A DNA stretch of 64,000 bases. Source: Actinomycetota bacterium (GTDB lineage Bacteria; Actinomycetota; Coriobacteriia; Anaerosomatales; JAUXNU01). Position 1 is the first letter of the stretch. Each line of letters opens with the position of its first letter. Both the position numbers and the translations under genes were made by a program. Positions 22,451-54,463 of the stretch are shown piece after piece. The stretch covers positions 14,597 through 78,596 of the forward strand of contig JAUXNU010000127.1 of NCBI GenBank assembly GCA_030682655.1, in the 5' to 3' direction. The notes under the pieces are model-generated. The model ran no database searches. It saw only the letters and a list, made by a program, of their open reading frames with translations, and was not told the origin of the DNA.

Positions 22451-23210
22451 GCGCGGGCTCGTCGCGTCGCGGGAGCGCGCGCGGGCCGCGATCATGGCCG
22501 GCGAGGTCCGCGTCGGTGATGAACCGGTGACCAAGGCCGGTCAGCTGATCGATGACAACGCAGAGATCGAGATACGCCGCCACGCTGACTACGTGTCCCG
22601 CGGCGGGCAGAAGCTGGAAGGCGCGTTCCGCGTGTTCGGAATCGACCCGCGAGACGCTCGGGCAGTGGACGTGGGCGCATCGACCGGAGGTTTCACGGAC
22701 TACCTGCTTCAGCACGGCGCAGAGCACGTGTGTGCCATCGATGTCGGGTATGGGCAGCTGGCATGGTCACTGCGCCAGGATCCCCGAGTGTCGGTGTTCG
22801 AGCGAACCAACATCCGCACGGCTGAGCCGGATGATGTGGGAGCGCCGTTCGATCTGGCGGTCGTGGATGTGTCTTTCATCAGTGTCGGGAAAGTGCTGCA
22901 CAAGGTGTGTTCGATGCTTCGACCGGGTGGTCAACTCGTGGCGTTGGTAAAACCTCAGTTTGAGGCCGGTAAGGGTCGTGTGGGAAAACGTGGAGTGGTC
23001 CGCGAACCTGCGATCCACGAGGAGGTGCTCGAACGGGTCCTTGGCGCGGTTCGAGAAGAAGGTCTTGTCCCCCTCGGACTGACATGGTCGCCTATCACGG
23101 GGCCCGAAGGTAACATTGAGTTCTGGATATGGGCGTCAGATGACGGTGAGGAAGTGGGCGTGTCCGTTTCGGAGGTCGTCGGGGCTGCTCACCGGGAGCT
23201 GGGGAGATAG
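22416..23210 (+). CDS. tlyA: TlyA-family rRNA 2'-O-ribose methyltransferase (S4 + FtsJ domains)
   Basis: RRRADVVIVERGLVASRERA (S4-like) and SAM motif DVGASTGGFTDYLL. ATG 22416 lies 8 nt after GGAG; GTG 22407 is the alternative. Confidence 0.85.
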   Translation: MTRRRADVVIVERGLVASRERARAAIMAGEVRVGDEPVTKAGQLIDDNAEIEIRRHADYVSRGGQKLEGAFRVFGIDPRDARAVDVGASTGGFTDYLLQHGAEHVCAIDVGYGQLAWSLRQDPRVSVFERTNIRTAEPDDVGAPFDLAVVDVSFISVGKVLHKVCSMLRPGGQLVALVKPQFEAGKGRVGKRGVVREPAIHEEVLERVLGAVREEGLVPLGLTWSPITGPEGNIEFWIWASDDGEEVGVSVSEVVGAAHRELGR

Positions 23211-25801: not shown

Positions 25802-26929
25802 GTGGAGATGCGACATCAGGGCACGGCCCGGCTGGACAAGCGGACGAAGGACCTCGTCAAGAGGCTTGGCAGGGACGACATCGCGATCATCGACCACGTC
25901 GATATGGATCGCGTGAGTGCTGAATCGCTGCTCGAGACCGGGACAGAAGTCGTCATCAACGCCGAGAGGTTCATTTCCGGCGTCTACCCGAACGTCGGCC
26001 CGCTCCTGCTCGCTCGTGGCGGAGTGCGCCTGATCGACGATGTCGGCCCAGAGATATTCCAACGCGTGCGCGAGGGCGATGCGATCGATGTTATCGGCAA
26101 TGAGGTCCTTCTTGCGGGAAACGTTGTCGCGCGCGGAACACGCCTCACCGTGGAAACCATCGAAGCTGCCATGGAGCAGGCCAAGGACGGACTCGAGGAA
26201 CAGCTGGACAAGTTCGCGCGCAACACCTTGGAGTACCTGGAGCGGGAGAAGTCGCTTCTCACCGACGGGACGAACGTGCCAGCCACCCGTACCGAGTTGC
26301 ATGGCAGGCATGCACTTGTCGTAGTCCGAGGCTACGACTACAAGGCCGATCTCGACGCACTCAAGCCGTACATCCGCGAGATTCGACCCGCTCTTGTAGG
26401 TGTGGACGGCGGAGCTGATGCGATCATAGAAGCTGGCTTCAAGCCGGACATCATCATCGGGGACATGGACTCGGTCAGCGACGATGCGCTGCTCTCCGGT
26501 GCGGAGATCATCGTGCATGCCTATCCAGACGGGCGTTGCCCCGGCATGGAAAGGCTGGATGCGCTCGGTGTTCGCGGGGTAGCGTGGCCTCTGGCAGCAA
26601 CAAGCGAGGATCTCGCGCTTCTTCTGGCATATGAGTCAGGAGCTGACCTTGTGGTCGCGGTTGGGACTCACGCGAACCTCGTGGAGTATCTTGACAAGGG
26701 GCGCAAAGGGATGGCTTCCACGTTTCTCGTCCGGCTCAAGGTCGGGCCTAAGCTCGTCGACGCGAAAGGCGTCAACAAGCTCTACCGGACATCGGTCGGA
26801 CCAACGGATCTCATGTTGCTTGTGGGTGCGGCTCTTGTTGCGGTGAGCGTGATCGTGATGATCTCGCCCATGGTTCGCCAGATGCTATCGCTGCTCTTGC
26901 TGCGAGTTCGCACGATATTGGGTATCTAG
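25802..26929 (+). CDS. steA: SteA-like putative cytokinetic-ring protein (thiamine-pyrophosphokinase-like domain + C-terminal TM)
   Basis: 375 aa. GTARLDKRTKDLVKRLGRDDIAIIDHVDMD N-terminus and IIGDMDSVSDDAL motif, with a C-terminal hydrophobic helix. The position directly after recN matches actinobacterial steA. Confidence 0.7.
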   Translation: MEMRHQGTARLDKRTKDLVKRLGRDDIAIIDHVDMDRVSAESLLETGTEVVINAERFISGVYPNVGPLLLARGGVRLIDDVGPEIFQRVREGDAIDVIGNEVLLAGNVVARGTRLTVETIEAAMEQAKDGLEEQLDKFARNTLEYLEREKSLLTDGTNVPATRTELHGRHALVVVRGYDYKADLDALKPYIREIRPALVGVDGGADAIIEAGFKPDIIIGDMDSVSDDALLSGAEIIVHAYPDGRCPGMERLDALGVRGVAWPLAATSEDLALLLAYESGADLVVAVGTHANLVEYLDKGRKGMASTFLVRLKVGPKLVDAKGVNKLYRTSVGPTDLMLLVGAALVAVSVIVMISPMVRQMLSLLLLRVRTILGI

Positions 26930-26956: not shown

Positions 26957-27829
26957 ATGTACAACCTTCGCTACCATATCGCGTCGCTCGTGGCGGTCTT
27001 CCTTGCAATGGCGATCGGCCTGCTCCTTGGCACTATCGTCGTCGAGAGAGGTACTTTCGACAGGCAGCGCGATTCGATCGTGGAGAGCCTTCAGGATGAG
27101 TTTCGCACGCTTGCCGATGAGAACGATGTGCTTCGCACGGACAACGAGCACCTCGACGCTTTCGTAGGTGACCTGGTCCCCGCTCTCACGGGCGATGTCC
27201 TTGCGGGCAAGAGGTTCCTGGTGATCGCGTCGACCGGTAGAACCGACGGGCTCGGGGCTGTGACCCAGGCCATCGGGCAGGCCGGCGGAGAGGTGATAGT
27301 GGCGACGGAGAGCGAAGCCGGGATGGCACTTGCTGATCCCGCGGTCTCTCAGGTAGCGACACCGGTGGTGGGGGATCTGACGGGTGACGATCTGGTTTCG
27401 GCAGTCTCGAAGACGCTTGCTGCCGAGTGGGCGACTCCGGGCGTCGATCGCCCTCTCACAGATGCGCTGAGCGAAGCAGGTGCGATTCGCTTCGATCCCG
27501 CACTGCGGGAAGACGTGTTTGTGGATGGTGTGATCGCGATGGCTGCGTGGGACGGTGTACCAGATGACCTCGCGCTGAGGATAGCCGAGGAGCTTTCCCG
27601 GGTGGGCCGGATCAGCATCGGTGCGGAGGCCGGGACGAATCCGACGGGCGTCGCTGCTGCGAGTGCAGCGCAAGGTCTGTCTGCCGTCGACAACGCCAGC
27701 AGCGCCGCCGGGCGGCTGTCTGTGGTGTGGCTGCTCGCCGGACGGGCAAAGGGCTACTTCGGAACCGGGGATGCCGCTGACGCGCCATGGCCGACGATGG
27801 AGACGAAGACGGGCTCGCCGAAGGACTAG
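26957..27829 (+). CDS. MctB-like (DUF3186 / copper transporter family) membrane-anchored protein
   Basis: 290 aa. MYNLRYHIASLVAVFLAMAIGLLLG N-terminal anchor plus coiled-coil (SLQDEFRTLADENDVLRTDNEHL). Located after steA, as Rv1698 is in Mycobacterium. Confidence 0.6.
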   Translation: MYNLRYHIASLVAVFLAMAIGLLLGTIVVERGTFDRQRDSIVESLQDEFRTLADENDVLRTDNEHLDAFVGDLVPALTGDVLAGKRFLVIASTGRTDGLGAVTQAIGQAGGEVIVATESEAGMALADPAVSQVATPVVGDLTGDDLVSAVSKTLAAEWATPGVDRPLTDALSEAGAIRFDPALREDVFVDGVIAMAAWDGVPDDLALRIAEELSRVGRISIGAEAGTNPTGVAAASAAQGLSAVDNASSAAGRLSVVWLLAGRAKGYFGTGDAADAPWPTMETKTGSPKD

Positions 27830-28518
27830 GCGGGGGTGCGACGACGCTCGAACGCAAGCCGCGCCAACGCCCGTCCGACATGGACGAACTGCTGTCCCCT
27901 GTGGGCAAATCCCGTCAGATCGCGACCGGTTGCTGCGTGACTCATCGTGGTCGGTATCTCGATGACACGCATTCCCGCGCGCAGCGCGCGGACGGTCAGG
28001 GCGACTTCGACCCCGTATCCGAATGCGAAAGGCGTCACGTTCGCGAGACAACGGGCCGACAGCGCTCTTTGACCTGAGAGCGGGGCCTGTGCCACGAACC
28101 CGCCACCCATTCGAGCGATCCCCCAACGTGCGAGACCCTTGACGAGACCGACACCGGCTTTGCCCGCAGGGCGCGGGAATGCGGCAATCACCAAGTCCGC
28201 GCGTCCTTCGGAGACCGGGTCGAGAAGAAGCTGGCCCTGCTCCGCAGACTGGCCCAGGTCCCCGTCGAGAAGCAGGAGCACCTCGATCTCCTCGGCCAGA
28301 TGGGCGATGCCGGTGTCGAGGGCCGCGCCTTTGCCCACGTTGTCGGGCAGGGCGAGCACTTCGGCCCCCGCAGCCCGTGCGACTTCGGCCGTCGAGTCGG
28401 TGGAGCCGTCGTCGACGACCAGGACACGGTCGACACCGCGGATGGAGCGTGCGGCGATCACGGTCGCGCCGATGAGATCGGCTTCGTTGAAGGCGGGGAT
28501 GAGTGCGACGACGCTCAT
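27826..28518 (-). CDS. Family 2 glycosyltransferase (small, DPM1/GtrB-like)
   Basis: 230 aa from the internal ATG at 28518. ALIPAFNEADLIGATV, VVDDGSTDST, and DxD-like LLDGDL. ATGA overlap with the murJ stop. Its stop overlaps the mctB-like stop in a shared CTAG. Confidence 0.8.
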   Translation of the reverse strand: MSVVALIPAFNEADLIGATVIAARSIRGVDRVLVVDDGSTDSTAEVARAAGAEVLALPDNVGKGAALDTGIAHLAEEIEVLLLLDGDLGQSAEQGQLLLDPVSEGRADLVIAAFPRPAGKAGVGLVKGLARWGIARMGGGFVAQAPLSGQRALSARCLANVTPFAFGYGVEVALTVRALRAGMRVIEIPTTMSHAATGRDLTGFAHRGQQFVHVGRALARLAFERRRTPA

Positions 28519-30080
28519 CGAGATCGCCCTGTCAGTCCCACGATGCCTCTCCGGATGAGCGCCACGCCCTCTGGGATCTCGGGTACGCGCAGGAGGGCTG
28601 CGATGCCGTAGGTGACGCCAAGACCGAGCGAGCCGGCGATGGCGAGCTGGACGAGGAATCCGGCGCGCGCGTCGGAAAGACCGCGAGTCGCATACAGCAG
28701 GCCGACGACGACCGCCGCCCCAGCCGTTGATGCGACAAGCATCCGGGCCAGAATGGAGACGACGCCGCGCATGTCGAACGCGCCGATGCGGCGGCGAAGG
28801 ACAAACAGGAGGGCGACGAGGCTTATGGACGCGAACACCGCATCGGAGATAGGGATGCCCCGTAGTCCAAGCCCCTTCCAGCTCCCGATGCCGACTGTGA
28901 GGGTCGCGTACAGCGAAACCTGGACGACGGTCGCCGCGCCGTTGACGAGCATCGGCGTCTTGGTGTCCTGCATCGAGTAGAAGGTCCGGATGAGGAACAT
29001 GAACATTGCGAAGAAGAACAGCGCCACGCCCCACCAGACGAGTACTTCGGCGACGACCGGTATGTCCTCGGCAGTGAAACGACCGGCGCGATACAGGGTG
29101 GTCAGTGGTGTGGCCAGCGTGACAAGCATGGCCGCCATCGGCAGCATGAGGACGCCGGTGATGCGGAGTCCCCTGCCGAAGGTCAGCTTGAAACTCGACC
29201 AGTCGTTGCGTCCGGCCTGGTCGGAGAGCTCGGTGAAGATCGCCGTTGCCAGAGCCACGGCGAAGATGCCGTATGGAAGCTGGTAGAACATCCACGCGTA
29301 CATCAGTGTCGCCGGTCCTTCGGGGGAGACCTCGAAGGCGTAGGCGTTGCGGAAGGACACGGCGATCAGGTTCGTGACGACGTAGAGCACCGTGGGAACT
29401 GCCATCTTGCCGAGCCGGCGCATTCCCGGGTGCTTGAAATCGATGCGCAAGGTGTACGCAGGTTTGAGTCTGAGCAGGCTCGGGAGCTGCACGGCGAACA
29501 TGGCGAGCACTCCGAGAGACGTGCCGACTGCCAATCCGATTCGGGCCAGCTCAGGATTCGTCTCGCGGAAGGGAACGTAGAAGCCCAGCAGAGTGACGAT
29601 CACAACAAGGTTGTTGAACACGGGGCCGATAGTCGGCCAGAAGTAGCGCCTCTGCGAGTTGAGCACGGCGCTGATGATCGATCCTGCGCCGTAGAACACC
29701 ACCTGGACCGCGAAGAATCGGAAGAAGTACGTGGCGAGCGCCGCGTCGTCCGGACTGATACGAAATGTCTGGGTCCTGACGAACGCTTCGGCATACACCG
29801 TGCCAAGGACGGCTACCACGCTCAGGATGAGCGTGGTCAGGTTGAAGAGCGAGCTCGCGAAACGCCAGGCGTCTTCGCGGCTCTTGTCTCCCCACCACTC
29901 CAGAAAGATCGGTATGAAGAGCGACGAGATGATGCCGCCTGCGACGAGCTCGTAGATCATGTTCGGGATGTTGTTCGCGACGCCGTACGATGCAGCGAGC
30001 GCGGTCACTCCGAGCGCGTATGCCGTCGCCCAGGTGCGCACAAACCCCGTGACCCGGGACAGCGTCGTAGATATGGACAT
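28515..30080 (-). CDS. murJ: MurJ/MviN-family (MOP superfamily) lipid-linked glycan flippase
   Basis: 521 aa. LSRVTGFVRTWATAYALG...ANNIPNMIYELVAGG N-terminal MurJ signature and ~14 hydrophobic segments. Confidence 0.85.
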   Translation of the reverse strand: MSISTTLSRVTGFVRTWATAYALGVTALAASYGVANNIPNMIYELVAGGIISSLFIPIFLEWWGDKSREDAWRFASSLFNLTTLILSVVAVLGTVYAEAFVRTQTFRISPDDAALATYFFRFFAVQVVFYGAGSIISAVLNSQRRYFWPTIGPVFNNLVVIVTLLGFYVPFRETNPELARIGLAVGTSLGVLAMFAVQLPSLLRLKPAYTLRIDFKHPGMRRLGKMAVPTVLYVVTNLIAVSFRNAYAFEVSPEGPATLMYAWMFYQLPYGIFAVALATAIFTELSDQAGRNDWSSFKLTFGRGLRITGVLMLPMAAMLVTLATPLTTLYRAGRFTAEDIPVVAEVLVWWGVALFFFAMFMFLIRTFYSMQDTKTPMLVNGAATVVQVSLYATLTVGIGSWKGLGLRGIPISDAVFASISLVALLFVLRRRIGAFDMRGVVSILARMLVASTAGAAVVVGLLYATRGLSDARAGFLVQLAIAGSLGLGVTYGIAALLRVPEIPEGVALIRRGIVGLTGRSR

Positions 30081-30346
30081 TATCGCGGTGGAGCGCGCGA
30101 TAGTGGGCTGGGATATGGTCCTGCCTCCGTTCGGTCAGTCCGCTTGGACCCCTCCGGACCGCGTCACACACAATTGTATCCGAGCATGTGGCGCAGCGGC
30201 TGGGCGCCTTGACGGCGTCGATGACTCGTAGCCGTGTCGTGACCATGTGCCATACCGGCTTCGCGCGGCATTCCGCTATACTTGCGGGTGGGCGCCTCTA
30301 GCCCGGTCCCGTGCAGTCGCACGCAGGGCCATGTCCCCAGATATGA

Positions 30347-30372
30347 TCGTCGCACGTGTACACGTGCGACGA
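30347..30372. promoter_or_regulatory. 26-bp perfect palindrome (putative operator or 5'-UTR hairpin) abutting the RBS of the 771-aa membrane protein gene
   Basis: TCGTCGCACGTGT|ACACGTGCGACGA was checked base by base: 13+13 nt, no mismatch. The right arm overlaps the GAGGAG RBS (30371-30376), and the ATG is at 30382. Confidence 0.9.
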
Positions 30373-30381
30373 GGAGTGTGG

Positions 30382-32697
30382 ATGAAGCGTTCGCTGACAC
30401 TGGTTGTGATCGTCGCGTCGATCGTCGCGACACTACTGCCTGCTGCCGCCGCGAAAGACGTGCAGCCGGCGCGCCGGGTCGTGCTCGTCCTGGCCCCGTA
30501 TCTTGAATGGTCGGACATCACCGCAGAAAGTGCGCCTGCTATCGCAGAACTCGGTGCTTCAGGGGCTCTCGGGAATCTGAACATGCGCAACCGTGGCAGA
30601 CTCTCAAGCTTGTCGTCGCCGGTACAGGGCGCGCTCACCCTCTCGTCCGGTTCATGGGCGGCCGAGGACCCATTGGCAGCGGCGGCGTACGGCTCGGACG
30701 AGTACTACGAGGGCGGGACGGCCGGTGATGCGTTCCTGCGGGCCACAGGGGCCGATTCGGCCGGTGCACAGGTCGTCTACCTTGGGATGTCCCGTGCTTT
30801 GCGCTTCAACGAGCAGGCCGAGACGCTCGCGGTCAAACTCGGCGCTCTCGGCCAGGCAATCGTGGATGCGGGTGGAACCACCGCGGCCATTGGGAACTCC
30901 GATTCCGGGTACGAGGTACGTGGCCTGGCCAGGAGTCGCCCGGCCGCGCTCGTTGCAATGGACGCGCAGGGTCGTGTTGTCCTTGGCGACGTATCATCCG
31001 GACTGCTCCAAAGCGATTCCGAGGCGCCATTCGGCATATCGACCGATCTGGCTGCGTTCGAGAAGGAGTATCAGAGGGTCTCAGAGGAGTTATCGAAGGC
31101 CACAGGGCCAGTGCTGGTCGTTCTCGATCCGGGAGATCTTCAGCGAGCCAAGGAGTTCGCGCCTGAGGCTTCCCCGGCGGTTGCTCGGGCGCACCACAGG
31201 CAGGCGGTCCGGACGCTGGATGTCATCGTCGACATCGTGATGAACGGGCTACCGGACGACAGCGTCATCATGGTCGTTCCGCAGGCGCTGGTTGAGACTC
31301 CCGGTGAGGTCATGGGTCTTGCACCCGTCATCGTCGCCGGTCCAGGTTGGTCTGGATATGCCAGTTCCTCGTCGACGCAGCGAACGGGCCTCGTCACGAA
31401 CCTCGACGTTGCCGCCACGGTGACGGGCTCGCTGGGTATCGAGAAGCCGGTCGAGGTGCTAGGGAACCCCATGGTACCCGTGCGCAACTCGGGCTCACTC
31501 GCGGACAGGGTCGCCGAGTTGTCGTCTATGAACGACGCGGCGGTCGCAGTCGACAGCGCGAAGCCCGCGATCATCAATGCGTTCATCGCGTGCACTACGC
31601 TGATTCTCATGCTCGCGACGGTCGTTCTCCTGCGGGCGCGAAGATGGAGCGTTCGCACGGTCGATCGGGTGTCGCGCTCAGGTATCACGCTGCTGTTGAT
31701 AGCCCTGACGGTTCCGGTGGCATCGACGGCGATGTTCGCGCTTGGGACTCGTCCGCAGAGTGCTGCGGCTGCGAGCGTTCAGTTCGCGGTGGTGGGTGCG
31801 ATTCTGGCCGTCGCGGCGCTCGTGCTGCGACGGTTCGTCGCTCTGCGCGTTCCCGTCGCTATTCTCAGCTTGCTCGCTACCGGCGTGATACTTGTCGATC
31901 AGTGGTTCGACGCGCCGTGGTCCTTCACGAGCTTCCTTGGGTACTCTCCTCTGATGGGGGCGCGCTACTACGGACTTGGGAACGAGAGCGCGGCGGTGTT
32001 GGTCGGCTCGGTGCTCGTCGGAACAAGCCTGCTCATGGATCAGTTCCCTGAGTCTGCCTGGACCCGACACATGCGCTTGTGGCTCCTGCCGGGTATCGGT
32101 GCGGTCATCGTCGGTACCGCCGCAGCCCCGTTTCTTGGGGCAAATGTGGGAGTCGTCGTGTGGGGCGTGGTCGCCTTCGGATTCGCGTGGTCGCTCATGA
32201 ACCGTGTGCGTTTCGGCTGGAGGCTAGCGCTGGGGGTGGCGGCCATCGTCGTCGCGCTTCTGGTGGCGTTCTCACTTGTGGATCTGTCTGCGGGCACGGG
32301 AAGTCAGACGCATCTGGCCCGTGCGTGGGAGAGTGCGCGTGCGGGCGGCGTGGGCGAGCTCTGGCTTATCGTGGCGCGAAAGGCCGAGACGAACATGCGC
32401 GTTCTGACTCGAACGAACTGGGCGTACCTTCTTGTCGCGGTTCTCGGATTCCTTGGCTTCATGCGCTGGAGGCCTCAGGGTGATTTCGCGGACACGCTTG
32501 CGGAGAATCCCTACTTCTCCGCCGCGATGGCTGCCTGCCTCGTGGGTGGAGTGGCTGCATACCTGACCGAGGACTCGGGGATCGTGATCCCGGCGCTGAT
32601 GTTTCTCTACGTAGGAGTGGGCATTCTGTGCCTGATGCTCGACCGGCTGCCCGGTGTCATGCAAAGCGAGCATTCCGGGGAAGGGGACAGCTCGTGA
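30382..32697 (+). CDS. Large envelope protein: signal peptide + ~420-aa extracytoplasmic domain + polytopic C-terminal membrane domain (function unknown)
   Basis: 771 aa from the ATG at 30382 (RBS GAGGAG). MKRSLTLVVIVASIVATLLPAAAAKD signal-like N-terminus. The soluble region has alkaline-phosphatase-superfamily-like edge motifs (VVLVLAPYLEWSD...; TGLVTNLDVAATV). About 9-11 hydrophobic helices start at ~aa 430. Confidence 0.7.
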   Translation: MKRSLTLVVIVASIVATLLPAAAAKDVQPARRVVLVLAPYLEWSDITAESAPAIAELGASGALGNLNMRNRGRLSSLSSPVQGALTLSSGSWAAEDPLAAAAYGSDEYYEGGTAGDAFLRATGADSAGAQVVYLGMSRALRFNEQAETLAVKLGALGQAIVDAGGTTAAIGNSDSGYEVRGLARSRPAALVAMDAQGRVVLGDVSSGLLQSDSEAPFGISTDLAAFEKEYQRVSEELSKATGPVLVVLDPGDLQRAKEFAPEASPAVARAHHRQAVRTLDVIVDIVMNGLPDDSVIMVVPQALVETPGEVMGLAPVIVAGPGWSGYASSSSTQRTGLVTNLDVAATVTGSLGIEKPVEVLGNPMVPVRNSGSLADRVAELSSMNDAAVAVDSAKPAIINAFIACTTLILMLATVVLLRARRWSVRTVDRVSRSGITLLLIALTVPVASTAMFALGTRPQSAAAASVQFAVVGAILAVAALVLRRFVALRVPVAILSLLATGVILVDQWFDAPWSFTSFLGYSPLMGARYYGLGNESAAVLVGSVLVGTSLLMDQFPESAWTRHMRLWLLPGIGAVIVGTAAAPFLGANVGVVVWGVVAFGFAWSLMNRVRFGWRLALGVAAIVVALLVAFSLVDLSAGTGSQTHLARAWESARAGGVGELWLIVARKAETNMRVLTRTNWAYLLVAVLGFLGFMRWRPQGDFADTLAENPYFSAAMAACLVGGVAAYLTEDSGIVIPALMFLYVGVGILCLMLDRLPGVMQSEHSGEGDSS

Positions 32698-33659
32698 CAG
32701 ATTGGACGGCGGAGTCGGTACGCCTCGTCGCCGCGCTTCTGGCCGGATGGGGTCTGCCGGCCCTTGGGATGCACATGTTTGTGCCGACGCTCGAGACATC
32801 CGGACCGCATGTGCGGAACTACCGGGACGCGGATGTGTTCGTCGGACTCGGTACGGTCTGGGTGTTCTGGGTGATCGCGATGGTCGGGCTGAATACCGTA
32901 GCTGTCTCAGGGGTCTTCTTCGGCAGAGAGCTCGCCGCTCCGGTCGTATTCCAGGCCATCCCCGTAGTCGTAGCGGCGTTCGTTTTCGGACTGATCGATG
33001 ACGCCATGGGCGGTTCCGCAGAGAAGGGGTTTGGCGGTCACGTGAGGGCGCTCCTCAGAGGCAGGCTGACGACCGGCGGGCTGAAGCTCCTTGGCATCGG
33101 GGCGGCCTCGCTCGGCGTCGCGCTTGTCCTTGAGCTGTCGCGCGCGGGTGAACCCGGGGCGACTCCCGTGTGGCGGACCGCCGTCGCGGTAGTAGCCGCG
33201 ACCGGAATCATCGCGCTGAGTGCGAACCTCGTGAACCTCCTGGATGTGCGTCCGGCGCGGGCCATCAAGGCGCATACCGCACTGAGTCTCATCGTGGTAT
33301 GCGTGGCAGTGGCACGCGCGATCCAGCTGGACTTCTCCGCGGGCGCTTCTCTCTTCGAGGGTGTTGGTCTGTTCGTCATGATGATCGGGCCGATGGTGGC
33401 CGTGTGGCGCTGGGACGCCAGCGGCCGCGGGATGCTCGGGGATGCTGGAGCCAACGCTGCGGGCGCGCTGGCAGGCTTCATGCTGGCCGCGGTTCTGCCT
33501 CTGCCGGGCCAGGTGATCGCGGCGGCGGCACTCCTTGGCATGAACCTACTCTCGGAGCGGGTCTCGTTCTCGGCCGTGATCGAGCACAACCGCGCGCTGG
33601 CATGGGTGGACGGGCTCGGCAGGATGCCCGAGGTGACCGAAAATCGCCCGGCTTCGTGA
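32694..33659 (+). CDS. MraY/WecA-like (GT4 polyprenyl-phosphate sugar-1-P transferase family) membrane protein with a divergent catalytic loop
   Basis: 321 aa. GTGA overlap with the upstream stop. GLIDDAMG and MLGDAGANAAG resemble the MraY DD and GDxGS loops, but the NxxNxxDGxDGL loop reads NLVNLLDVRPARA. About 9-10 TM segments. Confidence 0.6.
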   Translation: MTDWTAESVRLVAALLAGWGLPALGMHMFVPTLETSGPHVRNYRDADVFVGLGTVWVFWVIAMVGLNTVAVSGVFFGRELAAPVVFQAIPVVVAAFVFGLIDDAMGGSAEKGFGGHVRALLRGRLTTGGLKLLGIGAASLGVALVLELSRAGEPGATPVWRTAVAVVAATGIIALSANLVNLLDVRPARAIKAHTALSLIVVCVAVARAIQLDFSAGASLFEGVGLFVMMIGPMVAVWRWDASGRGMLGDAGANAAGALAGFMLAAVLPLPGQVIAAAALLGMNLLSERVSFSAVIEHNRALAWVDGLGRMPEVTENRPAS

Positions 33660-33715: not shown

Positions 33716-35329
33716 ATGGCAAAGTACATATTCGTGACCGGTGGAGTCGTATCTTCGCTCGGCAAGGGCATTACCGCCGCCTCCCTCGGGAGGCTGCTCA
33801 AGGCCCGCGGGTTGAAGGTGACCATCCAGAAGCTCGACCCGTATCTGAACGTCGACCCCGGCACGATGAGCCCCTTCCAGCATGGCGAGGTCTTCGTCAC
33901 CGACGACGGGGGAGAGACCGACCTCGATCTGGGTCACTACGAGCGCTTCATCGACGAATCACTCTCGCGCGACTGCAACGTCACTGCGGGTTCGGTCTAT
34001 TCGACCATCGTGACCAAGGAACGCCGGGGCGATTTTCTTGGCGGCACGGTTCAGGTTATTCCGCACGTGACCAACGAGATCAAGGACCGCATCCTGCGCC
34101 TTGCCGAGCAGACGCAGCCCGACGTGATCATCACGGAAGTGGGCGGCACGGTCGGCGACATCGAGTCCCTGCCGTTCCTCGAGGCGATCAGGCAGCTGCG
34201 CAAGGACCAAGGCCGGGAGAACGTCTGCTACATCCACGTGACGCTCGTGCCGTTCATCGCGGCAAGCGCGGAACTCAAGACCAAGCCCACGCAGCATTCG
34301 GTCAAGGAGCTTCGCAGCATCGGTATCCAGCCGGACTTCATCGTGTGTCGCTCTGACCGCCCGATCGACGCGGGGATACGGCGCAAGATAGCGCTGTTCT
34401 GCGATGTCGACCCGAAGGCGGTCGTGAGCGCCCAGGACGCGAGCAGCATCTATGAGGTGCCGCTCCGGCTGCGCGAACAGCAGCTCGACGAGATGGTCAT
34501 CGATCGGCTGCATCTCGACTGCGGGCAGCCGAACATGGACGAGTGGAACGCTTTCGTCGCTCACTCGGCGTCGCTGTCCAGTGAGGTCGACATCGCGCTG
34601 GTCGGCAAGTACGTGCAGCTCCCCGACGCATACCTCTCCGTCACCGAGGCCCTCGACCATGCGGGTATCTTCCACGACCACAAGGTGAACGTGCACTGGG
34701 TGGACGCCGAGTCGTTGACGCCAGAGGAGGTCGACCAGGTCCTTTCGGAGATGGATGGCATTCTTGTGCCCGGGGGCTTCGGCATTCGGGGCATCGAAGG
34801 CAAAGTGCGTGCGGCGCGCTACGCTCGCGAAGGCAAGGTCCCGTACTTCGGTATCTGCCTTGGCCTGCAGGTCGCCGTCGTTGAGTTCGCGCGGTACGTC
34901 GCGGGACTTGAGGGTGCGAACTCGGCCGAGTTCGATCCGGTCACGGAACACCCGGTCATCGACCTCATGCTCGAGCAGCACGAGGTCGACGACATGGGCG
35001 GCACCATGCGCCTGGGCGCCTATCCCTGCAAGGTCACAGCGGGAACCAGGGGCCACGAGGCCTACAAGGAAGAGGTCATCTACGAGCGGCATCGACACCG
35101 CTACGAGGTCAACAACGCGTATCGTCAGAAGCTCGTGGATGCCGGACTCGTTGTAAGCGGACTGAGTCCTGATGGCAAGCTGGTCGAGATGATCGAGCTG
35201 CCGGACCATCCGTGGTTCCTTGGCAATCAGGGACACCCCGAGTTCAAGAGCCGTCCGACGCGTCCGGCACCGCTATTCCGGGACTTCGTCGGGGCGGCGG
35301 TCGATTACCGGCGCGCACGCGAGAGCTGA
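33716..35329 (+). CDS. pyrG: CTP synthase
   Basis: 537 aa. [20 protein letters not shown]-terminus and the glutaminase motif GICLGLQ. Confidence 0.95.
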
Positions 35330-35336: not shown

Positions 35337-36455
35337 ATGACTGACGGGCGGCTACTGCGGACATTTCTCGACCTGGTGCGTATTGACAGCCCATCGCGCT
35401 CGGAGTCGGTTGTGGCAGCGTATTGCGGAAGCGCTTTTGAAGCGCGCGGGTTCGAAGTGCGTTTCGATGACACCATGTCGAGTACGGGTGCCGACATCGG
35501 GAACCTGATAGCGACGCGTCACGGCGATTCGGAGCGAACGCTCGTCCTTAGCGCGCACATGGACTGCGTGGAGCCATGCCGGGGTGTCGAACCTGTGGTG
35601 GTGGACGGGGTTGTCTCCTCGGCAGGGCAGACCGTGCTTGGCGCCGATGACAAGGCGGGCATCGCGGCGATTCTGGAGGCCGTGGACCGGCTGGACGAAT
35701 CGGGCGCACACACACCGGCGCTCAAGATCATCCTGACAGTCTGTGAAGAGCTTGGACTGCACGGCGCCAAGGCGCTCGACCCGGCGGACGCTGCCGGGGA
35801 TCTCTGCCTGGTGCTCGATGCGGACGGCGAGCCCGGCGGCATCGTCATTGGCGCTCCGACGCACTACACGTTCGTGGCGACATTCCAAGGAACCGCCTCC
35901 CACGCGGGCGTTGCGCCTGAGCGAGGCCGGTCGGCGCTCGTCATGGCATCGCGCGCGATCGCTGCGATGCAGCTCGGCCGGCTGGACGAGAACACCACCG
36001 CCAACATAGGGACCGTCGAAGGCGGAATCGCGACGAATGTGGTAGCCGCATTCGCGAGGGTTACCGGTGAGTGCCGCTCACTCCTCGCCGAAAGGGCGGA
36101 CGAAGTGCGGCTGCTCATGGACCAGGCGATGAGGGAGGCGGCTCGCACCGGGGACGGACAGGTGGATATCGCGTGGACCAAGGAGTACGAGGGGTTCCTG
36201 CGGGACTCCGACGACACGCTTGTCGTGATCGTCTCCGATGCGTGTCGGGAGGTAGGGCTACAGCCCCGGACATTCACGACCGGTGGTGGCAGCGACGGCA
36301 ACGTCTTCTCCAGCGACGGGACTCCCACGCTCGTGCTGTCCTGTGGCATGCGCAACGTCCACAGCACTGACGAGACCGTTCACCTTGCGGACATGGATTC
36401 GATTGCGGCGCTCATCGTCGCGGTGGCAAGCAGGGTGGCCGATCCGTCGTCATGA
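35337..36455 (+). CDS. M20-family metallopeptidase (peptidase T / tripeptidase-like)
   Basis: Internal ATG at 35337. SAHMDCV, GADDKAGIAAILEA, CEELGLHG and a C-terminal GGGSDGN pattern. Confidence 0.8.
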   Translation: MTDGRLLRTFLDLVRIDSPSRSESVVAAYCGSAFEARGFEVRFDDTMSSTGADIGNLIATRHGDSERTLVLSAHMDCVEPCRGVEPVVVDGVVSSAGQTVLGADDKAGIAAILEAVDRLDESGAHTPALKIILTVCEELGLHGAKALDPADAAGDLCLVLDADGEPGGIVIGAPTHYTFVATFQGTASHAGVAPERGRSALVMASRAIAAMQLGRLDENTTANIGTVEGGIATNVVAAFARVTGECRSLLAERADEVRLLMDQAMREAARTGDGQVDIAWTKEYEGFLRDSDDTLVVIVSDACREVGLQPRTFTTGGGSDGNVFSSDGTPTLVLSCGMRNVHSTDETVHLADMDSIAALIVAVASRVADPSS

Positions 36456-37564
36456 GACTCGTGTGGGCCATCGTCACCTCCGTGGAGGCGACAGCTGACG
36501 GTGCGCAGACGCTCGAGGTCGCGCTCGATGACCGGGGCAGTGGACGTGCGATCGCCTACACGCGGCTGACCGGGGAGTGCCGTCTCGCCGACCGCGTCTT
36601 GCTCAATACGACCGCCGTCGACATGTCCCTCGGCACAGGTGGGCTGCACTTCGTGGTGGCCCGCATGGGGGACGCCGAGGGTGTGGCGCTCGACGACCCG
36701 TCCGGCGGACACATCATGAAGATGCGCTATACGCCGTCGCAGATCGACGTGCTTGCCGTCGAGGAGCACGAGAGCCCACACCACTCGATCATGAAGGCTG
36801 CCGAGGACATAGCAGGGCTTCCGGTGGCCTGCTGCGGGCTGCACAGCCAGGTGCCCCTGGTGGCCGCAGCGGTCAAGGCTTTCGACGCGAACTTGCGCAT
36901 AGCATATGTCATGACCGACTTCGCGGCGCTGCCGCTGGTGCTTTCGGATGTCGTGAGGGCCGCTGTCAGGGCGGGATTGATCGATACCACGATCACGTGC
37001 GGACAGGCGTTCGGCGGTGACCTCGAGGCCGTGAACCTGCACTCGGCTCTGCTGGCTGCGCGCCATGTGGCACGGGCGGATGTGGCGATCGCCGCAATCG
37101 GTCCCGGTGTCGTCGGCACCTCGACACCATTCGGCCACGGCGGCATCGCGCAGGGTGAGGCGATAAACGCTGCGGGTGTTCTCGGAGGAGTCCCCGTGGC
37201 ATGCCTGAGGGTCTCCTTCGCCGATGCCCGCGCCCGCCATCGCGGCGTGAGCCATCACACGCTTACCGCGCTCTCGACGGTCGCGCTTGCGCCGGCTCTG
37301 GTCGCGGTTCCCTCGCTTCCCGAAGAGTACGCCGAGGAGGTAGACCTGGCCCTCGAAGAGGCCCACGTGTGGAGCCGGCACAGGCGCGCCATCTCCTCGG
37401 CCGGGAGCACCGCTCCGCCCTCTCTAGGCGGCGTCGAAGTGAGAACGATGGGTCGCGATCTTAACCAAGATCCCGCGTTCTTCGCAGCCGCTTTCGCCGC
37501 TGGGGACGTCTGTGCCAGAGTCGCCCGGGTAGCGCAGGGCAAGCTGCCGCCGACGGGTGAATAG
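36452..37564 (+). CDS. DUF3866-like conserved protein of unknown function
   Basis: 370 aa. ATGA overlap with the M20 gene. Family assignment is from recalled family features (LNTTAVDMSLGTGGLHFV, HSQVPLVAAAVK, IGPGVVGTSTPFGHGG) and was not verified by a search. Confidence 0.55.
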   Translation: MRLVWAIVTSVEATADGAQTLEVALDDRGSGRAIAYTRLTGECRLADRVLLNTTAVDMSLGTGGLHFVVARMGDAEGVALDDPSGGHIMKMRYTPSQIDVLAVEEHESPHHSIMKAAEDIAGLPVACCGLHSQVPLVAAAVKAFDANLRIAYVMTDFAALPLVLSDVVRAAVRAGLIDTTITCGQAFGGDLEAVNLHSALLAARHVARADVAIAAIGPGVVGTSTPFGHGGIAQGEAINAAGVLGGVPVACLRVSFADARARHRGVSHHTLTALSTVALAPALVAVPSLPEEYAEEVDLALEEAHVWSRHRRAISSAGSTAPPSLGGVEVRTMGRDLNQDPAFFAAAFAAGDVCARVARVAQGKLPPTGE

Positions 37565-37686
37565 AGTGATGGGGCCTGCTGCATAAAGCACGGTGTCTGC
37601 GTTACACTGGCCTGAGTTTCTTGCCCGCTGGTGTTCGATCCCAGCCTGGTGTGGTCAGCGGGTCCATCACAGACAAGGAGATTGCC

Positions 37687-38802
37687 GTGATCGTAGGCGT
37701 GCCCAAGGAGATCAAGGACAACGAGTTTCGCGTGGGCATGACCCCTGCGGGCGCGCGCGAATTCGTGAGCCATGGACACACGGTGCTTGTAGAGAAGTCT
37801 GCCGGAGTCGGCTCCTCGTTCGAAGATGGCGAGTACGTGGGCGCTGGTGCCGAGATCGCCGAGACCGCCGAGGAGGTCTTTGCACGCGCCGACATGATCG
37901 TGAAGGTCAAGGAGCCTCAGGCGGCCGAGATCGAGCGTCTTCGAGAGGGGCAGATCCTCTTCACGTACCTGCACCTTGCGCCCGACCTCTCGCAGACCGA
38001 GGGGCTCGTCAAGTCCGGCGCCGTGTGTATCGCCTACGAGACCGTCGAGCTTCCCAATCGCTCCCTGCCCCTGCTCGCGCCGATGTCCGAGGTTGCGGGT
38101 CGAATGGCGACTCAGGTGGGCGCCGAGTACCTGCTCAAGCCGATGGGCGGTAGGGGCATGCTCATGGGGGGCGTTCCCGGGGTTCTCCCAGCCAACGTCG
38201 TCATTCTGGGCGCGGGTGTAGTGGGCATGAATGCCGCCTACGTTGCCGTTGGCATGGGTGCCCACGTCACCGTTCTCGACGTGAACCTGGATCGGCTTCG
38301 CTACATCGATGACCTCTGGGGAAACCGGATCCGCACAGTGTATTCGTTGCGCCACAACATCGAGCAAGCAGTCTATCAGGCCGATCTCGTGATCGGCGCC
38401 GTGCTTCTGGCCGGCGCGCGTGCTCCTTGGCTCGTCACAAGAGACATGCTTCCCGACATGAAGCGCGGTTCGGTGGTCGTCGACGTCTCCGTTGACCAGG
38501 GCGGATGCATCGAGTCGACGAAGCCCACCACCCACTCCGATCCGATCTACTTCGTCGACGGTGTCCTGCACTACGGTGTCGCCAACATGCCGGGCGCGGT
38601 GCCCAACACGTCCACGCTTGCCCTCACCAATGCCACCCTGCGGTATGGTCTGGCGATTGCGAACAAGGGATGGAAGCAGGCCGTTGCCGAGGACGCGGCG
38701 CTGGCCAAGGGCGTGAACGTACTCGCGGGCAAGATCGTCTACGAGCCGGTCGCCGAGGCACACGGCATGGACTACACGCCACTGGAGCAGCTTCTGGGCT
38801 AA
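37687..38802 (+). CDS. ald: Alanine dehydrogenase
   Basis: GTG start 7 nt after [29 protein letters not shown]-terminus and the NAD motif [13 protein letters not shown]. Confidence 0.9.
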
Positions 38803-38811
38803 GGAGCGCAC

Positions 38812-39717
38812 ATGCGCTCTCACGTTGCGGAATTCATGGCCTATCTGGCCGTTGAGAGGGGGGCGTCCCCTCACACGGTCGATGCATACCGCCGCGACCT
38901 GGCAGGCTACATGGACGCGCTCGATGCCCGCGGCGTTGCTGACGTCGATGCGGTGACGCGGGACGACATCATAGCCTACCTCGTGCGACTGCACGAAGCC
39001 GGCCTTGCTCCCAGCACCGTCGAGCGTCGGGTTGCGGCGGTCAAGAGCTTCCACAAGTTCCTTGTGCGCGAGGGCGTTACCGAGAACCAACCGGCTGCGC
39101 GGGTGAGGTTGCCGAAGGTTCCCGAGAGGCTGCCGGACTCCATCTCGATCGAGCAGGCCAAGCACCTGCTTTCGCAGACCTTCGGCGACGGGCCGCCCGG
39201 CATACGGGACCGCGCGATTCTGGAGATGCTATACGGATGCGGAATGCGTGTCAGCGAGTTGACCTCACTCGAACTCGACGACCTGGCGCTTGACGACGGC
39301 TTTGTTCGCGTGTTCGGAAAAGGCGAGAAGGAGCGCGTCGTCCCGATCGGGAAGCCAGCTACGGCTGCCTTGTCGGAGTACCTTGCCCACGGGCGGCCGT
39401 ACCTTCGGACGAAGGGCTCCACCCGGCCAGCGGAGCCGTCAGCCGTCTTTCTCAGTGTGCGTGGCCGACGCCTGACGCGTCAGGCGGTCTACGCGATGGT
39501 ACGGAAGTATGGTGAACTCGTCGGGCTTCGTCTCCACCCTCACACGTTGCGGCACTCGTTCGCTACTCACATGCTCGAAGGGGGTGCGGACCTGCGCGCA
39601 TTGCAGGAGATGCTCGGGCATGCGGACATATCCACAACGCAGGTGTATACGCATGTGGACCGCCAGCACATCCGCGAGGAGTACCTCACAACTCACCCGC
39701 GGGCACGTTTGCGATAG
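38812..39717 (+). CDS. xerD: Site-specific tyrosine recombinase XerD
   Basis: 301 aa. R...HxxR...Y catalytic set (GMRVSEL, HTLRHSFATHMLEGGADLR, GHADISTTQVYTHV). Confidence 0.85.
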   Translation: MRSHVAEFMAYLAVERGASPHTVDAYRRDLAGYMDALDARGVADVDAVTRDDIIAYLVRLHEAGLAPSTVERRVAAVKSFHKFLVREGVTENQPAARVRLPKVPERLPDSISIEQAKHLLSQTFGDGPPGIRDRAILEMLYGCGMRVSELTSLELDDLALDDGFVRVFGKGEKERVVPIGKPATAALSEYLAHGRPYLRTKGSTRPAEPSAVFLSVRGRRLTRQAVYAMVRKYGELVGLRLHPHTLRHSFATHMLEGGADLRALQEMLGHADISTTQVYTHVDRQHIREEYLTTHPRARLR

Positions 39718-39882: not shown

Positions 39883-40953
39883 GTGGACGTAAGGTTTAGG
39901 AGAGTCCTAGCACTGATGCTCGTATTCGCGATGGTTCTGGTGTTTGCTGCGGGATGCGGTACGAAAGATGAAGCCAAGCCGGACACCAGCACGGAGACCC
40001 CCAAGACCGACGTCAAGGCTGCCATGGTCACCGACGTAGGCGGCCTCGGCGACAAGTCCTTCAACGATCTGTCGTACGAAGGTCTCAAGAAGGCTGAGAG
40101 CGAACTCGGTGTCAAGATCGAGGTCCTTGAGTCGAAGGAGATCACGGACTACGAGTCGAACATCGATCAGCTCGCTACGGCGGGCTACAGCCCGATCTTC
40201 GCGGTCGGCTTTCTCATGACTGACACGGTCGTGAAGCTGGCCCCGACCTTCCCGGACACCTACTTCGGCGGTGTTGACGAGGAGTTCTACGATGGTGTCC
40301 CGGCCAACGTGGTGTCCCTGCTGTTCAAGGAGCAGGAGGGCAGCTACCTGGCCGGCGTGGTTGCAGGTCTGGCCACGAAGGACTCGTTTGACAGCAAGCT
40401 CAACGCCGACAATGTCATCGGCTTCATCGGTGGCATGGATGTCCCGTTGATCAAGAAGTTCGAAGCTGGTTTCATCGCCGGTGCCAAGTCCGTGAACCCG
40501 GACGTCAAGGTCATCTCGTTGTACACGGGCAACTTCACTGACCAGGCCAAGGGCAAGGAGCTCGGCTACTCGCTCATCGGGCAGAAGGCGGATGTCATCT
40601 TCGCCGCAGCTGGCGCCTGTGGTACGGGCGCGGTCGCTGCTTGCCAGGAGAAGGGCGCCCTGTTCATCGGTGTCGACGCCGACCAGTATGTGACGATTCC
40701 CGGTACTGGCGACGTCATGCTCACTTCGATGATGAAGCGCGTCGACACAGCTGTGTTCGAGGCCATCAAGGCCGTGGTCGACGGATCGTTCCCTGGCGGT
40801 CAGGCGCAGTACTTCGGACTTGCCGAGGGTGGCGTGGATCTTGCCCCGTACCACGATTTTGAGGCCAAGGTCCCGCAGACCATCAAGGATGCCGTCGAGA
40901 AGGCTCGCGAGGACATCGTCAGTGGTGCCGTCACGGTTCCTGAGACTCCGTAG
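39883..40953 (+). CDS. BMP-family (PnrA/Med-like) ABC substrate-binding lipoprotein, probable nucleoside binding
   Basis: 356 aa. Lipobox LVFAAGCG. AAMVTDVGGLGDKSFND and GFIGGMDVPLI motifs. Confidence 0.85.
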   Translation: MDVRFRRVLALMLVFAMVLVFAAGCGTKDEAKPDTSTETPKTDVKAAMVTDVGGLGDKSFNDLSYEGLKKAESELGVKIEVLESKEITDYESNIDQLATAGYSPIFAVGFLMTDTVVKLAPTFPDTYFGGVDEEFYDGVPANVVSLLFKEQEGSYLAGVVAGLATKDSFDSKLNADNVIGFIGGMDVPLIKKFEAGFIAGAKSVNPDVKVISLYTGNFTDQAKGKELGYSLIGQKADVIFAAAGACGTGAVAACQEKGALFIGVDADQYVTIPGTGDVMLTSMMKRVDTAVFEAIKAVVDGSFPGGQAQYFGLAEGGVDLAPYHDFEAKVPQTIKDAVEKAREDIVSGAVTVPETP

Positions 40954-40997
40954 TAGCACGTAGCGCCGCATCTCAGGCGACTTGTTGAGCTAGAATA

Positions 40998-41034
40998 GAG
41001 GGGCGGCGGGCCATGGTCCGGCCGCCCCTCTTTG
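40998..41034 (+). terminator. Intra-operon hairpin (attenuator/terminator) between the binding-protein and ATPase genes
   Basis: GAGGGGCGGC (40998-41007) pairs with GCCGCCCCTC (41021-41030) in a 10-bp GC stem, followed by TTTG. Confidence 0.5.
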
Positions 41035-41060
41035 CTGCACGACCATGCGAAGGGAAGACT

Positions 41061-46773: not shown

Positions 46774-47208
46774 ATGTTCCTGGGCGACTATCAGCACACG
46801 CTGGACGCCAAAGGGCGCGTTTCGCTGCCCGCCAAGTTCCGGGCGGAGATGACGGGCAAGCTCGTCATCGCCAAGGGAATGGAAGGCTGTCTCTACGTCT
46901 ACTCGGCCGAAGAGTACTCCGCCTTCGTGAAACGGCTCATGGGCAAGGACGACTTCGAACCGCGCTTCCGCAAAGTGAGGCGCTACTTCACGTCCGGCGC
47001 GGTTGAAGCCGAGCTTGATTCGGCAGGTCGCATCACGCTACCGCCGCTGCTCAGGGAGTTCGCCAAGCTCGAGAAAGACGTATCGATCACAGGGAACGGC
47101 AACCGCATCGAAGTGTGGAACGCGGATGCCTGGTCCACGTATAGCGGCGAGACTGCCGACGGCATCGAAGACTTCGCCAAGGAGCTCGCCGACGCGGGTC
47201 TCCTGTAG
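46774..47208 (+). CDS. mraZ: Transcriptional regulator MraZ
   Basis: 144 aa. MFLGDYQHTLDAKGRVSLPAKFR and a second SpoVT/AbrB-like repeat (DSAGRITLPPLLREF). Confidence 0.95.
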   Translation: MFLGDYQHTLDAKGRVSLPAKFRAEMTGKLVIAKGMEGCLYVYSAEEYSAFVKRLMGKDDFEPRFRKVRRYFTSGAVEAELDSAGRITLPPLLREFAKLEKDVSITGNGNRIEVWNADAWSTYSGETADGIEDFAKELADAGLL

Positions 47209-47217
47209 GCCTTGACA

Positions 47218-48153: not shown

Positions 48154-48190
48154 CAGGGTCGGAACGCGGAGTTGAAGGAGGTGGGTCGCG

Positions 48191-50511: not shown

Positions 50512-50529
50512 TGAGCGGCGCAGGACGCA

Positions 50530-50538
50530 TGATAGAAT
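50530..50538 (+). promoter_or_regulatory. Possible internal extended -10 element (TGaTAGAAT) ahead of murE
   Basis: TGATAGAAT in the 51-nt ftsI-murE gap, 25 nt before the murE GTG. Confidence 0.3.
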
Positions 50539-50562
50539 CGACCGTCTTCTAGGTGGGAACAA

Positions 50563-54462: not shown

Positions 54463-54463
54463 A

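Follow-up and report, generated by a model that had tools for sequence, protein, structure and literature searches.

The SteA-SteB pair of Corynebacterineae (Rv1697-Rv1698/MctB) forms a complex at the septum that both positions and activates the hydrolase RipA (PMC12977500), and SteAB is a newly defined cell-separation regulator of M. tuberculosis. SteA carries a conserved pocket that resembles the AMP/CMP sites of thiamine pyrophosphokinase (TPK) and CstII; carbohydrate binding has been predicted for this pocket, and its ligand is unknown (PMC12977500). In some Clostridia, steAB lies beside spo0A, with glycosyltransferase (GT) genes not mentioned (PMC12977500). Here we describe a locus in a 64,000-nucleotide stretch of an Actinomycetota genome (contig JAUXNU010000127.1, positions 14,597 to 78,596; hereafter the window) in which steA and steB stand together with genes for a family 2 glycosyltransferase (GT2), the flippase MurJ, a DUF3866 protein and two membrane proteins that we name BIG and MraYL. 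BIG designates a 771-amino-acid (aa) protein family without a Pfam domain, and MraYL a divergent transferase of the MraY/WecA fold. This region represents a copy of an old and conserved set of envelope genes, made up of steA, steB, GT2, MraYL, MurJ, BIG and DUF3866. A link of MurJ, GT2, MraYL, BIG and DUF3866 to SteAB is not described in the literature searched, and the papers on steAB beyond Actinobacteria make no mention of these glycan-type genes.

The other closely related system comes from C. difficile, where the genes cdr20291_1053-1057 are essential by transposon sequencing (Tn-seq) and CRISPR interference (CRISPRi) and have no known function (J Bacteriol 2025, PMC12548448). Their annotations read pyrophosphokinase (373 aa), exported protein (291 aa), family 2 GT (230 aa), GT-family protein (274 aa) and DUF3866 protein (355 aa), and their knock-down yields short, swollen, phase-bright, chaining cells (PMC12548448). 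A further essential gene, cdr20291_1124, lies downstream of alaS and encodes a 723-aa membrane protein whose phenotype is chaining and curved cells (PMC12548448).

The gene set in the window and in two phyla

The genes of the locus and the region that divides them are listed here in window coordinates.

25802..26929, + strand: steA, cytokinetic-ring protein with a TPK-like cytoplasmic domain and a C-terminal transmembrane helix (NF040608, PF12555)
26957..27829, + strand: steB/mctB-like, single-pass membrane protein with an extracytoplasmic domain (PF11382)
27826..28518, - strand: GT2, small soluble GT-A glycosyltransferase of 230 aa, translationally coupled to murJ (PF00535)
28515..30080, - strand: murJ, MOP-family flippase of 521 aa (TIGR01695, PF03023)
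30081..30381, no strand: divergent control region of 301 nucleotides (nt), read from the sequence
30382..32697, + strand: BIG, 771 aa, unnamed family; signal peptide, alkaline-phosphatase-fold ectodomain (about residues 30-370) and about 11 transmembrane helices (about 397-752)
32694..33659, + strand: MraYL, 321 aa, divergent polyprenyl-phosphate phospho-sugar transferase-like protein, translationally coupled to BIG
33716..35329, + strand: pyrG, CTP synthase, co-directional neighbour (NF003792, 871 bits)
35337..36455, + strand: PepT-like M20 peptidase (TIGR01883, 305.7 bits)
36452..37564, + strand: DUF3866 protein of 370 aa (PF12982)

When the open reading frames (ORFs) were read again, the coordinates, the strands and the two coupled gene pairs came out as in an earlier, first-pass annotation of this DNA, and the models of BIG and MraYL proved identical to the NCBI proteins P0121 and P0001 from an uncultured Actinomycetota metagenome-assembled genome (MAG). 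The overlaps it had reported could be read directly and are all correct: an ATGA shared by murJ and GT2 on the minus strand (28518-28515), a GTGA shared by BIG and MraYL (32694-32697) with a GGGGA Shine-Dalgarno-like run upstream, and a CTAG (27826-27829) common to the convergent stops of the steB/mctB-like gene and GT2. The spacing between steA and steB is 27 nt, and the stop of the pepT-like gene is overlapped by the start of DUF3866 (ATGA). SteA scores 500 bits with NF040608 against a cutoff of 150, also matches PF12555, and retrieves PDB 9HMY in a sequence search (E 5e-76). The steB/mctB-like product scores 103.8 bits with PF11382 (cutoff 25.6) and has no PDB match by sequence, though SteB structures exist. 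The DUF3866 protein reaches 400.9 bits with PF12982 (cutoff 25, E 5e-120) and has no PDB relative by sequence or profile.

We scanned one genome per GTDB species for BIG motifs and obtained 34 Coriobacteriia-like loci. Where the contig allows, all 34 show the order recN-steA-steB-GT2(-)-murJ(-)-BIG(+)-MraYL(+)-pyrG-pepT-DUF3866, and the co-occurrence of BIG with MraYL and the other genes is accordingly conserved in 34/34 loci. A metagenome scan with MraYL motifs only gave 80 loci, which were annotated with models built from the sequences of this analysis. Neighbours were counted relative to MraYL, with the loci that have enough flank as denominators:

GT2 directly upstream of, or fused to, MraYL: 43/57 loci
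steB upstream of MraYL, adjacent to GT2 or MraYL: 41/47 loci
steA upstream of MraYL: 35/39 loci
DUF3866 at most 5 kb downstream of MraYL: 27/44 loci

The four components MurJ, GT2, BIG and MraYL are found at the junction between steB and pyrG in distant high-GC actinobacterial contigs too. Two contigs of 72-73% GC carry the whole set co-directionally with 4-nt overlaps, one as tlyA-nadK-recN-steA-steB-murJ-[BIG::GT2::BIG]-MraYL-pyrG-NUDIX-xerD and the other, from steB onward, as steB-[MurJ::BIG::GT2::BIG]-MraYL-pyrG-NUDIX-xerD, the double colons denoting fused proteins. Fusions of the type BIG::GT2::BIG occur in five separate 50%-identity clusters, the 2394-aa protein MurJ::BIG::GT2::BIG (P0402) belongs to another such cluster, and GT2::MraYL fusions occur in four contigs. 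The GT2 part of the BIG fusions scores 250-264 bits with a model made from the GT2 of this cluster. Moreover, the order of the fused parts agrees with the inferred topology, in which the C-terminus of BIG would be inside, GT2 would likewise be inside, and the signal-anchor of the next BIG would lead out again. In two loci (L147 and L153) murJ follows MraYL with a 4-nt overlap, pyrG follows MraYL in the actinobacterial loci, and the position of the pepT-like gene is kept in the Coriobacteriia-like loci. The fusions are the strongest part of the argument for one system. Because synteny, a second arrangement of the same set and the fusions provide three independent lines of evidence, we consider it highly probable that the four genes form one functional unit. 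The first-pass annotation had read the four genes as a functional module with parts like those of a lipid-linked glycan pathway, and the 34/34 loci, the distant contigs and the fusions bear it out in this respect.

The unit is larger than these four genes and also takes in steA, steB and DUF3866. Low-GC loci and named Clostridia show the order (dxs-tlyA-)recN-(spoIVB-spo0A)-steA-steB-GT2-MraYL-DUF3866-(NUDIX)-xerD, with DUF3866 directly after MraYL; examples are Natronincola, a contig with a Peptacetobacter hominis protein, and Thermoanaerobacterium. In one clostridial locus (L065), BIG is divergent from steA. High-GC loci read steA-steB-(GT2)-MraYL-pyrG...DUF3866. GT2 and MraYL have long accompanied steA-steB, and in two phyla they occupy one and the same position with respect to recN, pyrG, NUDIX and xerD. 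The earlier picture of a module inserted into a conserved mctB-pyrG junction is not supported, since GT2 and MraYL follow steA-steB in Clostridia and in other Actinomycetota. In Mycobacterium, as the first-pass annotation also had it, and in Corynebacterium, steB is directly followed by pyrG. Given the conservation of GT2 and MraYL beside steA-steB in two phyla, parsimony suggests that Mycobacterium most likely lost these genes and so came to have steB and pyrG side by side. Two traits are lineage-specific in the window: GT2 is inverted and placed behind murJ, and the layout is divergent, with BIG before MraYL.

The sizes and order of cdr20291_1053-1057 equal those of two Peptostreptococcaceae loci (L163 and L164) that read steA-steB-GT2-MraYL-DUF3866. 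The C. difficile cluster has the same five families as the window, with matching sizes; it differs in that its BIG-like gene is unlinked and that no murJ lies in the cluster. Directly after alaS(-ireB) and before ruvX, BIG is found in Alkaliphilus, Geosporobacter, Fuchsiella, Frackibacter and one gut-metagenome contig, and the cluster to which the BIG of this last contig belongs has members of 711 and 723 aa. Because BIG occupies this place in related Clostridia and the size matches, cdr20291_1124 is very probably the BIG orthologue of C. difficile.

MraYL, BIG, MurJ and GT2

The AlphaFold2 (AF2) model of MraYL, built from an alignment of 53 homologues, has a pLDDT of 93.3. When it was searched with Foldseek, the 35 best PDB matches were all MraY or DPAGT1, with a probability of 1.0, a template-modelling (TM) score of about 0.55 and E-values down to 2e-4. 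The Firmicutes orthologue from L065 matches PF00953 at 45.3 bits (cutoff 27), a PF00953 match is precomputed for most Firmicutes members, and the Clostridia orthologues (about 275 aa) share the special motifs of MraYL and reach PF00953. Profile searches of the PDB with the MraYL alignments (hmmsearch) gave no match. The earlier MraY/WecA-like call for the window protein thus stands at the level of fold, from AF2 and Foldseek, and finds no support in profile searches with the protein's own sequence.

MraYL shares with MraY, WecA and DPAGT1 (polyprenyl-phosphate N-acetylhexosamine-1-phosphate transferases, PNPT; PF00953) the fold, about 10 transmembrane helices, the DD pair, the NxxNxxD motif and the Asp of (M/L)GDxG. 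Residues D102 and D103, which form the DD pair, and D250, the GDxG Asp within LGDAG, are invariant in the 53 sequences and across phyla and align with the motifs of MraY; N178, N181 and D184 of NxxNxxD are kept as well. The differences are a low identity (12-18%), a shorter chain (270-320 aa), and an invariant loop of its own, GH...GRLTTGGLK. In addition, D-L-R-P-G-R-A-(I/L)-K stands in place of the DGxDGL motif. The second Asp of DGxDG lines the uridine pocket of MraY; as it is lost in MraYL, the donor nucleotide may differ from that of MraY, a lead that comes from comparing motifs. The first-pass annotation had also raised the possibility of a decayed paralogue under relaxed selection. Compared with the closest relative, dN/dS is 0.13 for MraYL (and 0.13 for BIG), and 36 residues of MraYL are invariant across phyla, which rules decay out.

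BIG consists of a Sec-type signal peptide, an alkaline-phosphatase/sulfatase-fold domain and about 11 transmembrane helices. Its AF2 model (pLDDT 90.6) finds the periplasmic domain of YejM/PbgA and arylsulfatase A as the best Foldseek matches (E about 1e-5), and the 42 PDB matches at E<=1e-3 include YejM, arylsulfatase A, alkaline phosphatase and NPP. Searches with the sequence gave no match in Pfam, NCBIfam, the PDB by phmmer (E<=10) or the PDB by hmmsearch with alignments. A Pfam family was found in 0/55 members, and a weak SGSH_C motif in 29/55. At E<=1e-30 the family comprises 2369 representatives, each standing for a 50%-identity cluster; a word-indexed protein search gave 133 matches, an underestimate against the thousands at cluster level. 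In the ectodomain, R255, T332 and D342 are invariant in all copies examined; in the membrane part, D506, R528, N534, P583, H644, R666, K667, N671 and D731 are. By hydropathy and the positive-inside rule, these membrane-part residues map to outside loops.

Like PbgA/YejM, LtaS, EptA/MCR-1 and OpgB, BIG combines an extracytoplasmic alkaline-phosphatase/sulfatase-fold domain with a polytopic membrane domain, and in these known proteins the membrane domain faces lipid substrates. Unlike them, it has the reverse domain order, with the ectodomain first after the signal peptide, and about 11 transmembrane helices instead of 5. It also differs from them in that its strongest conservation lies in the loops of the transmembrane domain, and it seems not to conserve the canonical metal ligands and Thr nucleophile. 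By sequence position, strand 1 of the BIG ectodomain ends in A38-P39, the start of the helix at 80-89 has no conserved Ser/Thr, and there is no DH pair.

Outside the Coriobacteriia-like loci, BIG keeps other company. It adjoins a same-strand GT4 (GT-B) gene in 29 of 46 Firmicutes loci (L035-L080), and other Firmicutes loci have it between alaS(-ireB), which it directly follows, and ruvX. Two loci (L042 and L050) hold two BIG paralogues each. One contig of an actinobacterial MAG (L037, 1-5159) reads BIG-MraYL and then alaS, combining the Coriobacteriia-type and Firmicutes-type neighbourhoods. The GT4 partner common in Firmicutes was sought in the window and not found.

The two minus-strand genes carry the identities first assigned to them, with profile scores above cutoff. 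MurJ is a bona fide MurJ, with 293.9 bits against the TIGR01695 equivalog cutoff of 235.55, residues 1-502 covered, and an E-value of 1e-85 for PF03023; it is the only MurJ profile match in the 64-kb window. GT2 has a complete GT-A domain (PF00535, 66.3 bits, cutoff 23.3) with the DGD motif in LLLLDGDLG. Its best partial matches are AglJ, PpgS and GpgS. The curated cutoffs are not reached (AglJ 88.9 vs 325 bits, PpgS 62.6 vs 370, ArnC 21 vs 529), and the likeness of GT2 to polyprenyl-phosphate glycosyltransferases, as judged from these alignments, is confined to the GT-A core.

The divergent control region and neighbouring genes

The 301-nt region between murJ and BIG holds, as the first-pass annotation had it, a perfect 26-bp palindrome, which lies at 30347-30372 (arms TCGTCGCACGTGT and ACACGTGCGACGA; full sequence TCGTCGCACGTGTACACGTGCGACGA). 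The palindrome carries two CACGTG cores and sits directly before the GGAG Shine-Dalgarno sequence and the ATG at 30382. Its arms of 13 make it the longest perfect palindrome of the window; first-order Markov simulations gave arms of at most 11, and 0/40 reached its length. As RNA it can fold into an 11-bp hairpin. The palindrome is a lineage-specific feature, because the closest relative (L082) has a degenerate version of it and other relatives have none. Its half-site shows no enrichment within the window, and the 301-nt region has no match in Rfam. A conserved operator or riboswitch was ruled out on these grounds.

No sigma-70 consensus promoter was found in the region. It contains the following box:

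30277..30282, + strand: TATACT, -10-like box some 105 nt ahead of the BIG start codon, within G(C/G)TATACT, its flanks conserved in L082

Among 29 related intergenic regions, 20 have the G(C/G)TATACT box, about 105-130 nt ahead of BIG; the window itself has it too, and one further related locus (L026) has a TATAAT variant. The TATACT box is likely a -10 element, which would imply a leader of about 100 nt with the palindrome inside it. Intrinsic terminators were found neither in the region nor on the + strand between 30.4 and 37.6 kb, and BIG-MraYL-pyrG-pepT-DUF3866 may therefore share a single transcript.

The canonical mraY of the window lies at 53395-54462 (PF00953, 123 bits, and MraY_sig1), together with ftsW and murG at 53-58 kb. 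The presence of mraY and ftsW in the division and cell wall (dcw) cluster of the window, already noted in the first-pass annotation, is thus recovered by profile. This cluster is complete (46774-59517, + strand), includes mraW, a class B penicillin-binding protein, mraY, ftsW and murG, and lies some 13 kb past the module on the downstream side. In the ORF list, the pepT-like frame opens with a TTG at 35220, within pyrG, and the TIGR01883 alignment begins at residue 44 of this long ORF; the ATG at 35337, 7 nt past the pyrG stop, is likely the start. A 132-aa ORF without a Pfam match (22552-22950, + strand) lies between dxs and nadK, at the position of tlyA in relatives, and could be a remnant, or else a small gene unrelated to it. 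Two long ORFs without a Pfam match (37255-39165 and 40800-42491, both - strand) are possibly shadow ORFs of a high-GC genome.

A possible lipid-linked pathway, its alternatives and known systems

We lean toward reading the module as a polyprenyl-linked route to a glycan or phosphoglycan, one that is coupled to septal hydrolysis under the control of SteAB. MraYL, working at the cytoplasmic face, would load a phospho-sugar or a related phospho-group onto polyprenyl phosphate, and GT2, which is physically coupled to MraYL in some lineages, would add the next sugar. MurJ would flip the resulting lipid, or lipid II. In the outer leaflet, BIG would then act on the flipped lipid, either by transferring its head group to the wall or by binding or sensing it; its invariant polar residues are predicted to lie in extracytoplasmic loops beneath the alkaline-phosphatase-fold domain. 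Finally, the pathway would be tied functionally to the SteA-SteB complex that positions the septal peptidoglycan hydrolase. In favour of the scheme are the linkage in two phyla and the fusions, the purifying selection on BIG and MraYL, the MraY fold and motifs kept by MraYL, the DGD motif and full GT-A domain of GT2, the signal peptide and conserved outside loops of BIG, the pocket of SteA, and the essentiality and chaining phenotype of the C. difficile counterparts. In this scheme we infer the lipid carrier, the substrates, the sequence of reactions, what BIG does and how the pathway connects to SteA.

Several points weigh against such a route. The MurJ of the window may simply be the housekeeping lipid II flippase, and GT2 resembles GpgS, which uses a soluble acceptor, about as well as it resembles polyprenyl-phosphate glycosyltransferases. 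The window MraYL has no match in Pfam, NCBIfam or PDB sequence searches, even at E<=10. It is without the second Asp of the DGxDG motif and without the His-rich (HHH) loop of MraY, and given these motif losses its donor and even its activity are uncertain. The transmembrane domain of BIG is unmatched among the 50 best PDB hits listed, all of which belong to the alkaline-phosphatase superfamily, and the ectodomain seems, from its sequence, to be without the canonical metal ligands and nucleophile of alkaline phosphatases. Most Firmicutes have BIG away from the steA operon, beside a GT4 gene or alaS. The assignment of cdr20291_1124 to BIG is based on size and synteny, not on sequence, and the pathway biochemistry of all four proteins is something we infer.

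Alternatively, BIG could be a non-catalytic sensor, similar to PbgA/YejM, of lipid II or of polyprenyl-phosphate intermediates flipped by a housekeeping MurJ; it would inform SteAB and the septal hydrolase, and MraYL and GT2 would make a small signalling or priming lipid. Such a device would suit the place of the YejM/PbgA periplasmic domain among the best structural matches of the BIG ectodomain, the apparent lack of conservation of the canonical alkaline-phosphatase-fold catalytic residues, a MurJ above the lipid II flippase equivalog cutoff, and the regulatory nature of SteAB, whose own cytoplasmic ligand is yet to be named. We nevertheless regard it as unlikely: the outside loops of BIG are rich in invariant charged residues (D506, R528, H644, R666, K667, D731), a pattern typical of active sites, and a GT2 covalently fused between two BIG copies suggests an assembly line more than a sensor. 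The direct fusion of GT2 to BIG would also be compatible with a scheme of two branches, in which GT2 acts as a polyprenyl-phosphate sugar synthase of the AglJ/PpgS/ArnC/GtrB type, and its product is flipped and used by a GT-C-like transmembrane domain of BIG that decorates a wall polymer started separately by MraYL. The best NCBIfam matches of GT2 are indeed polyprenyl- or dolichyl-phosphate glycosyltransferases (AglJ, 89 bits, and PpgS), with ArnC in the PDB, and BIG joins polytopic and outside domains with conserved acidic residues in the outside loops. This scheme appears still more doubtful, since all those GT2 matches are far under the family cutoffs, the GT2::MraYL fusion fits consecutive steps on one lipid, and the 50 best PDB matches listed for BIG include no GT-C structure, though several are in the PDB.

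A polymer resembling lipoteichoic acid (LTA) and containing glycerate or phosphate, such as PS-III of C. difficile, would give GT2 the role of a GpgS-like enzyme forming a glycosyl-glycerate unit, and BIG that of an LtaS-type phosphotransferase or polymerase. GT2 aligns over its whole GT-A domain with glucosyl-3-phosphoglycerate synthases (E 1.5e-9), BIG shares its superfamily fold with LtaS-type enzymes, and the GT4 encoded next to BIG weakly resembles synthases of glycolipid anchors. PS-III contains GlcNAc-(1-2)-glyceric acid (PMC13558421). However, this type of polymer is known from few Clostridia only and the gene set spans two phyla, and the catalytic Thr and metal site of LtaS are not evident in BIG, which makes this explanation very improbable. 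We give equally little credence to unrelated housekeeping neighbours kept near recN and pyrG by chromosomal inertia. The dxs, nadK, recN, pyrG and xerD region is an old syntenic block, and BIG lies elsewhere in most Firmicutes, as mere neighbourhood would allow; fusions in three combinations, overlapping start and stop codons, and the recurrence of the same set in three arrangements across two phyla all speak against it.

Extending the polyprenyl-linked route, we tentatively put forward a bolder proposal that we hold, as a whole, to be improbable: the ancestral steAB operon might encode a complete, unrecognised pathway for a septal glycolipid or phosphoglycan, comprising PNPT enzymes of a new subfamily whose nucleotide pocket is altered, a GT2 of its own, MurJ, and BIG as a new class of extracytoplasmic transferase. 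The ligand of the SteA pocket would then be a nucleotide-sugar of the pathway or a nucleotide by-product, glycan synthesis would license the SteB-mediated activation of the hydrolase, and of the whole system no more than the regulatory half would survive in Mycobacteriales. In C. difficile, five or six of these genes are essential and carry no assigned function. Our analysis provides the first genomic argument that places MurJ, GT2, MraYL, BIG (>2,300 clusters at 50% identity) and DUF3866 in one system with SteAB, the M. tuberculosis regulator. Orphan essential genes thereby become a testable pathway and candidate antibiotic targets in Clostridia.

Compared with the SteA-SteB locus of Corynebacterineae, the window has the same adjacency of steA and steB, with recN upstream and pyrG downstream; the window and Clostridia differ from it in having glycan-type genes in the same cluster. 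Linkage-unit and Wzx-type pathways (WecA with WbbL, TagO with TagA, Wzx/MurJ flippases, extracytoplasmic ligases) resemble the module in pairing a PNPT-like initiator, a small GT and a MOP flippase with an extracytoplasmic membrane enzyme. The module differs from these pathways in that the set is without an LCP, Wzy, WaaL or GT-C homologue and its extracytoplasmic partner is a new family, and in that its ties are to steA-steB and DUF3866, not to a polysaccharide locus.

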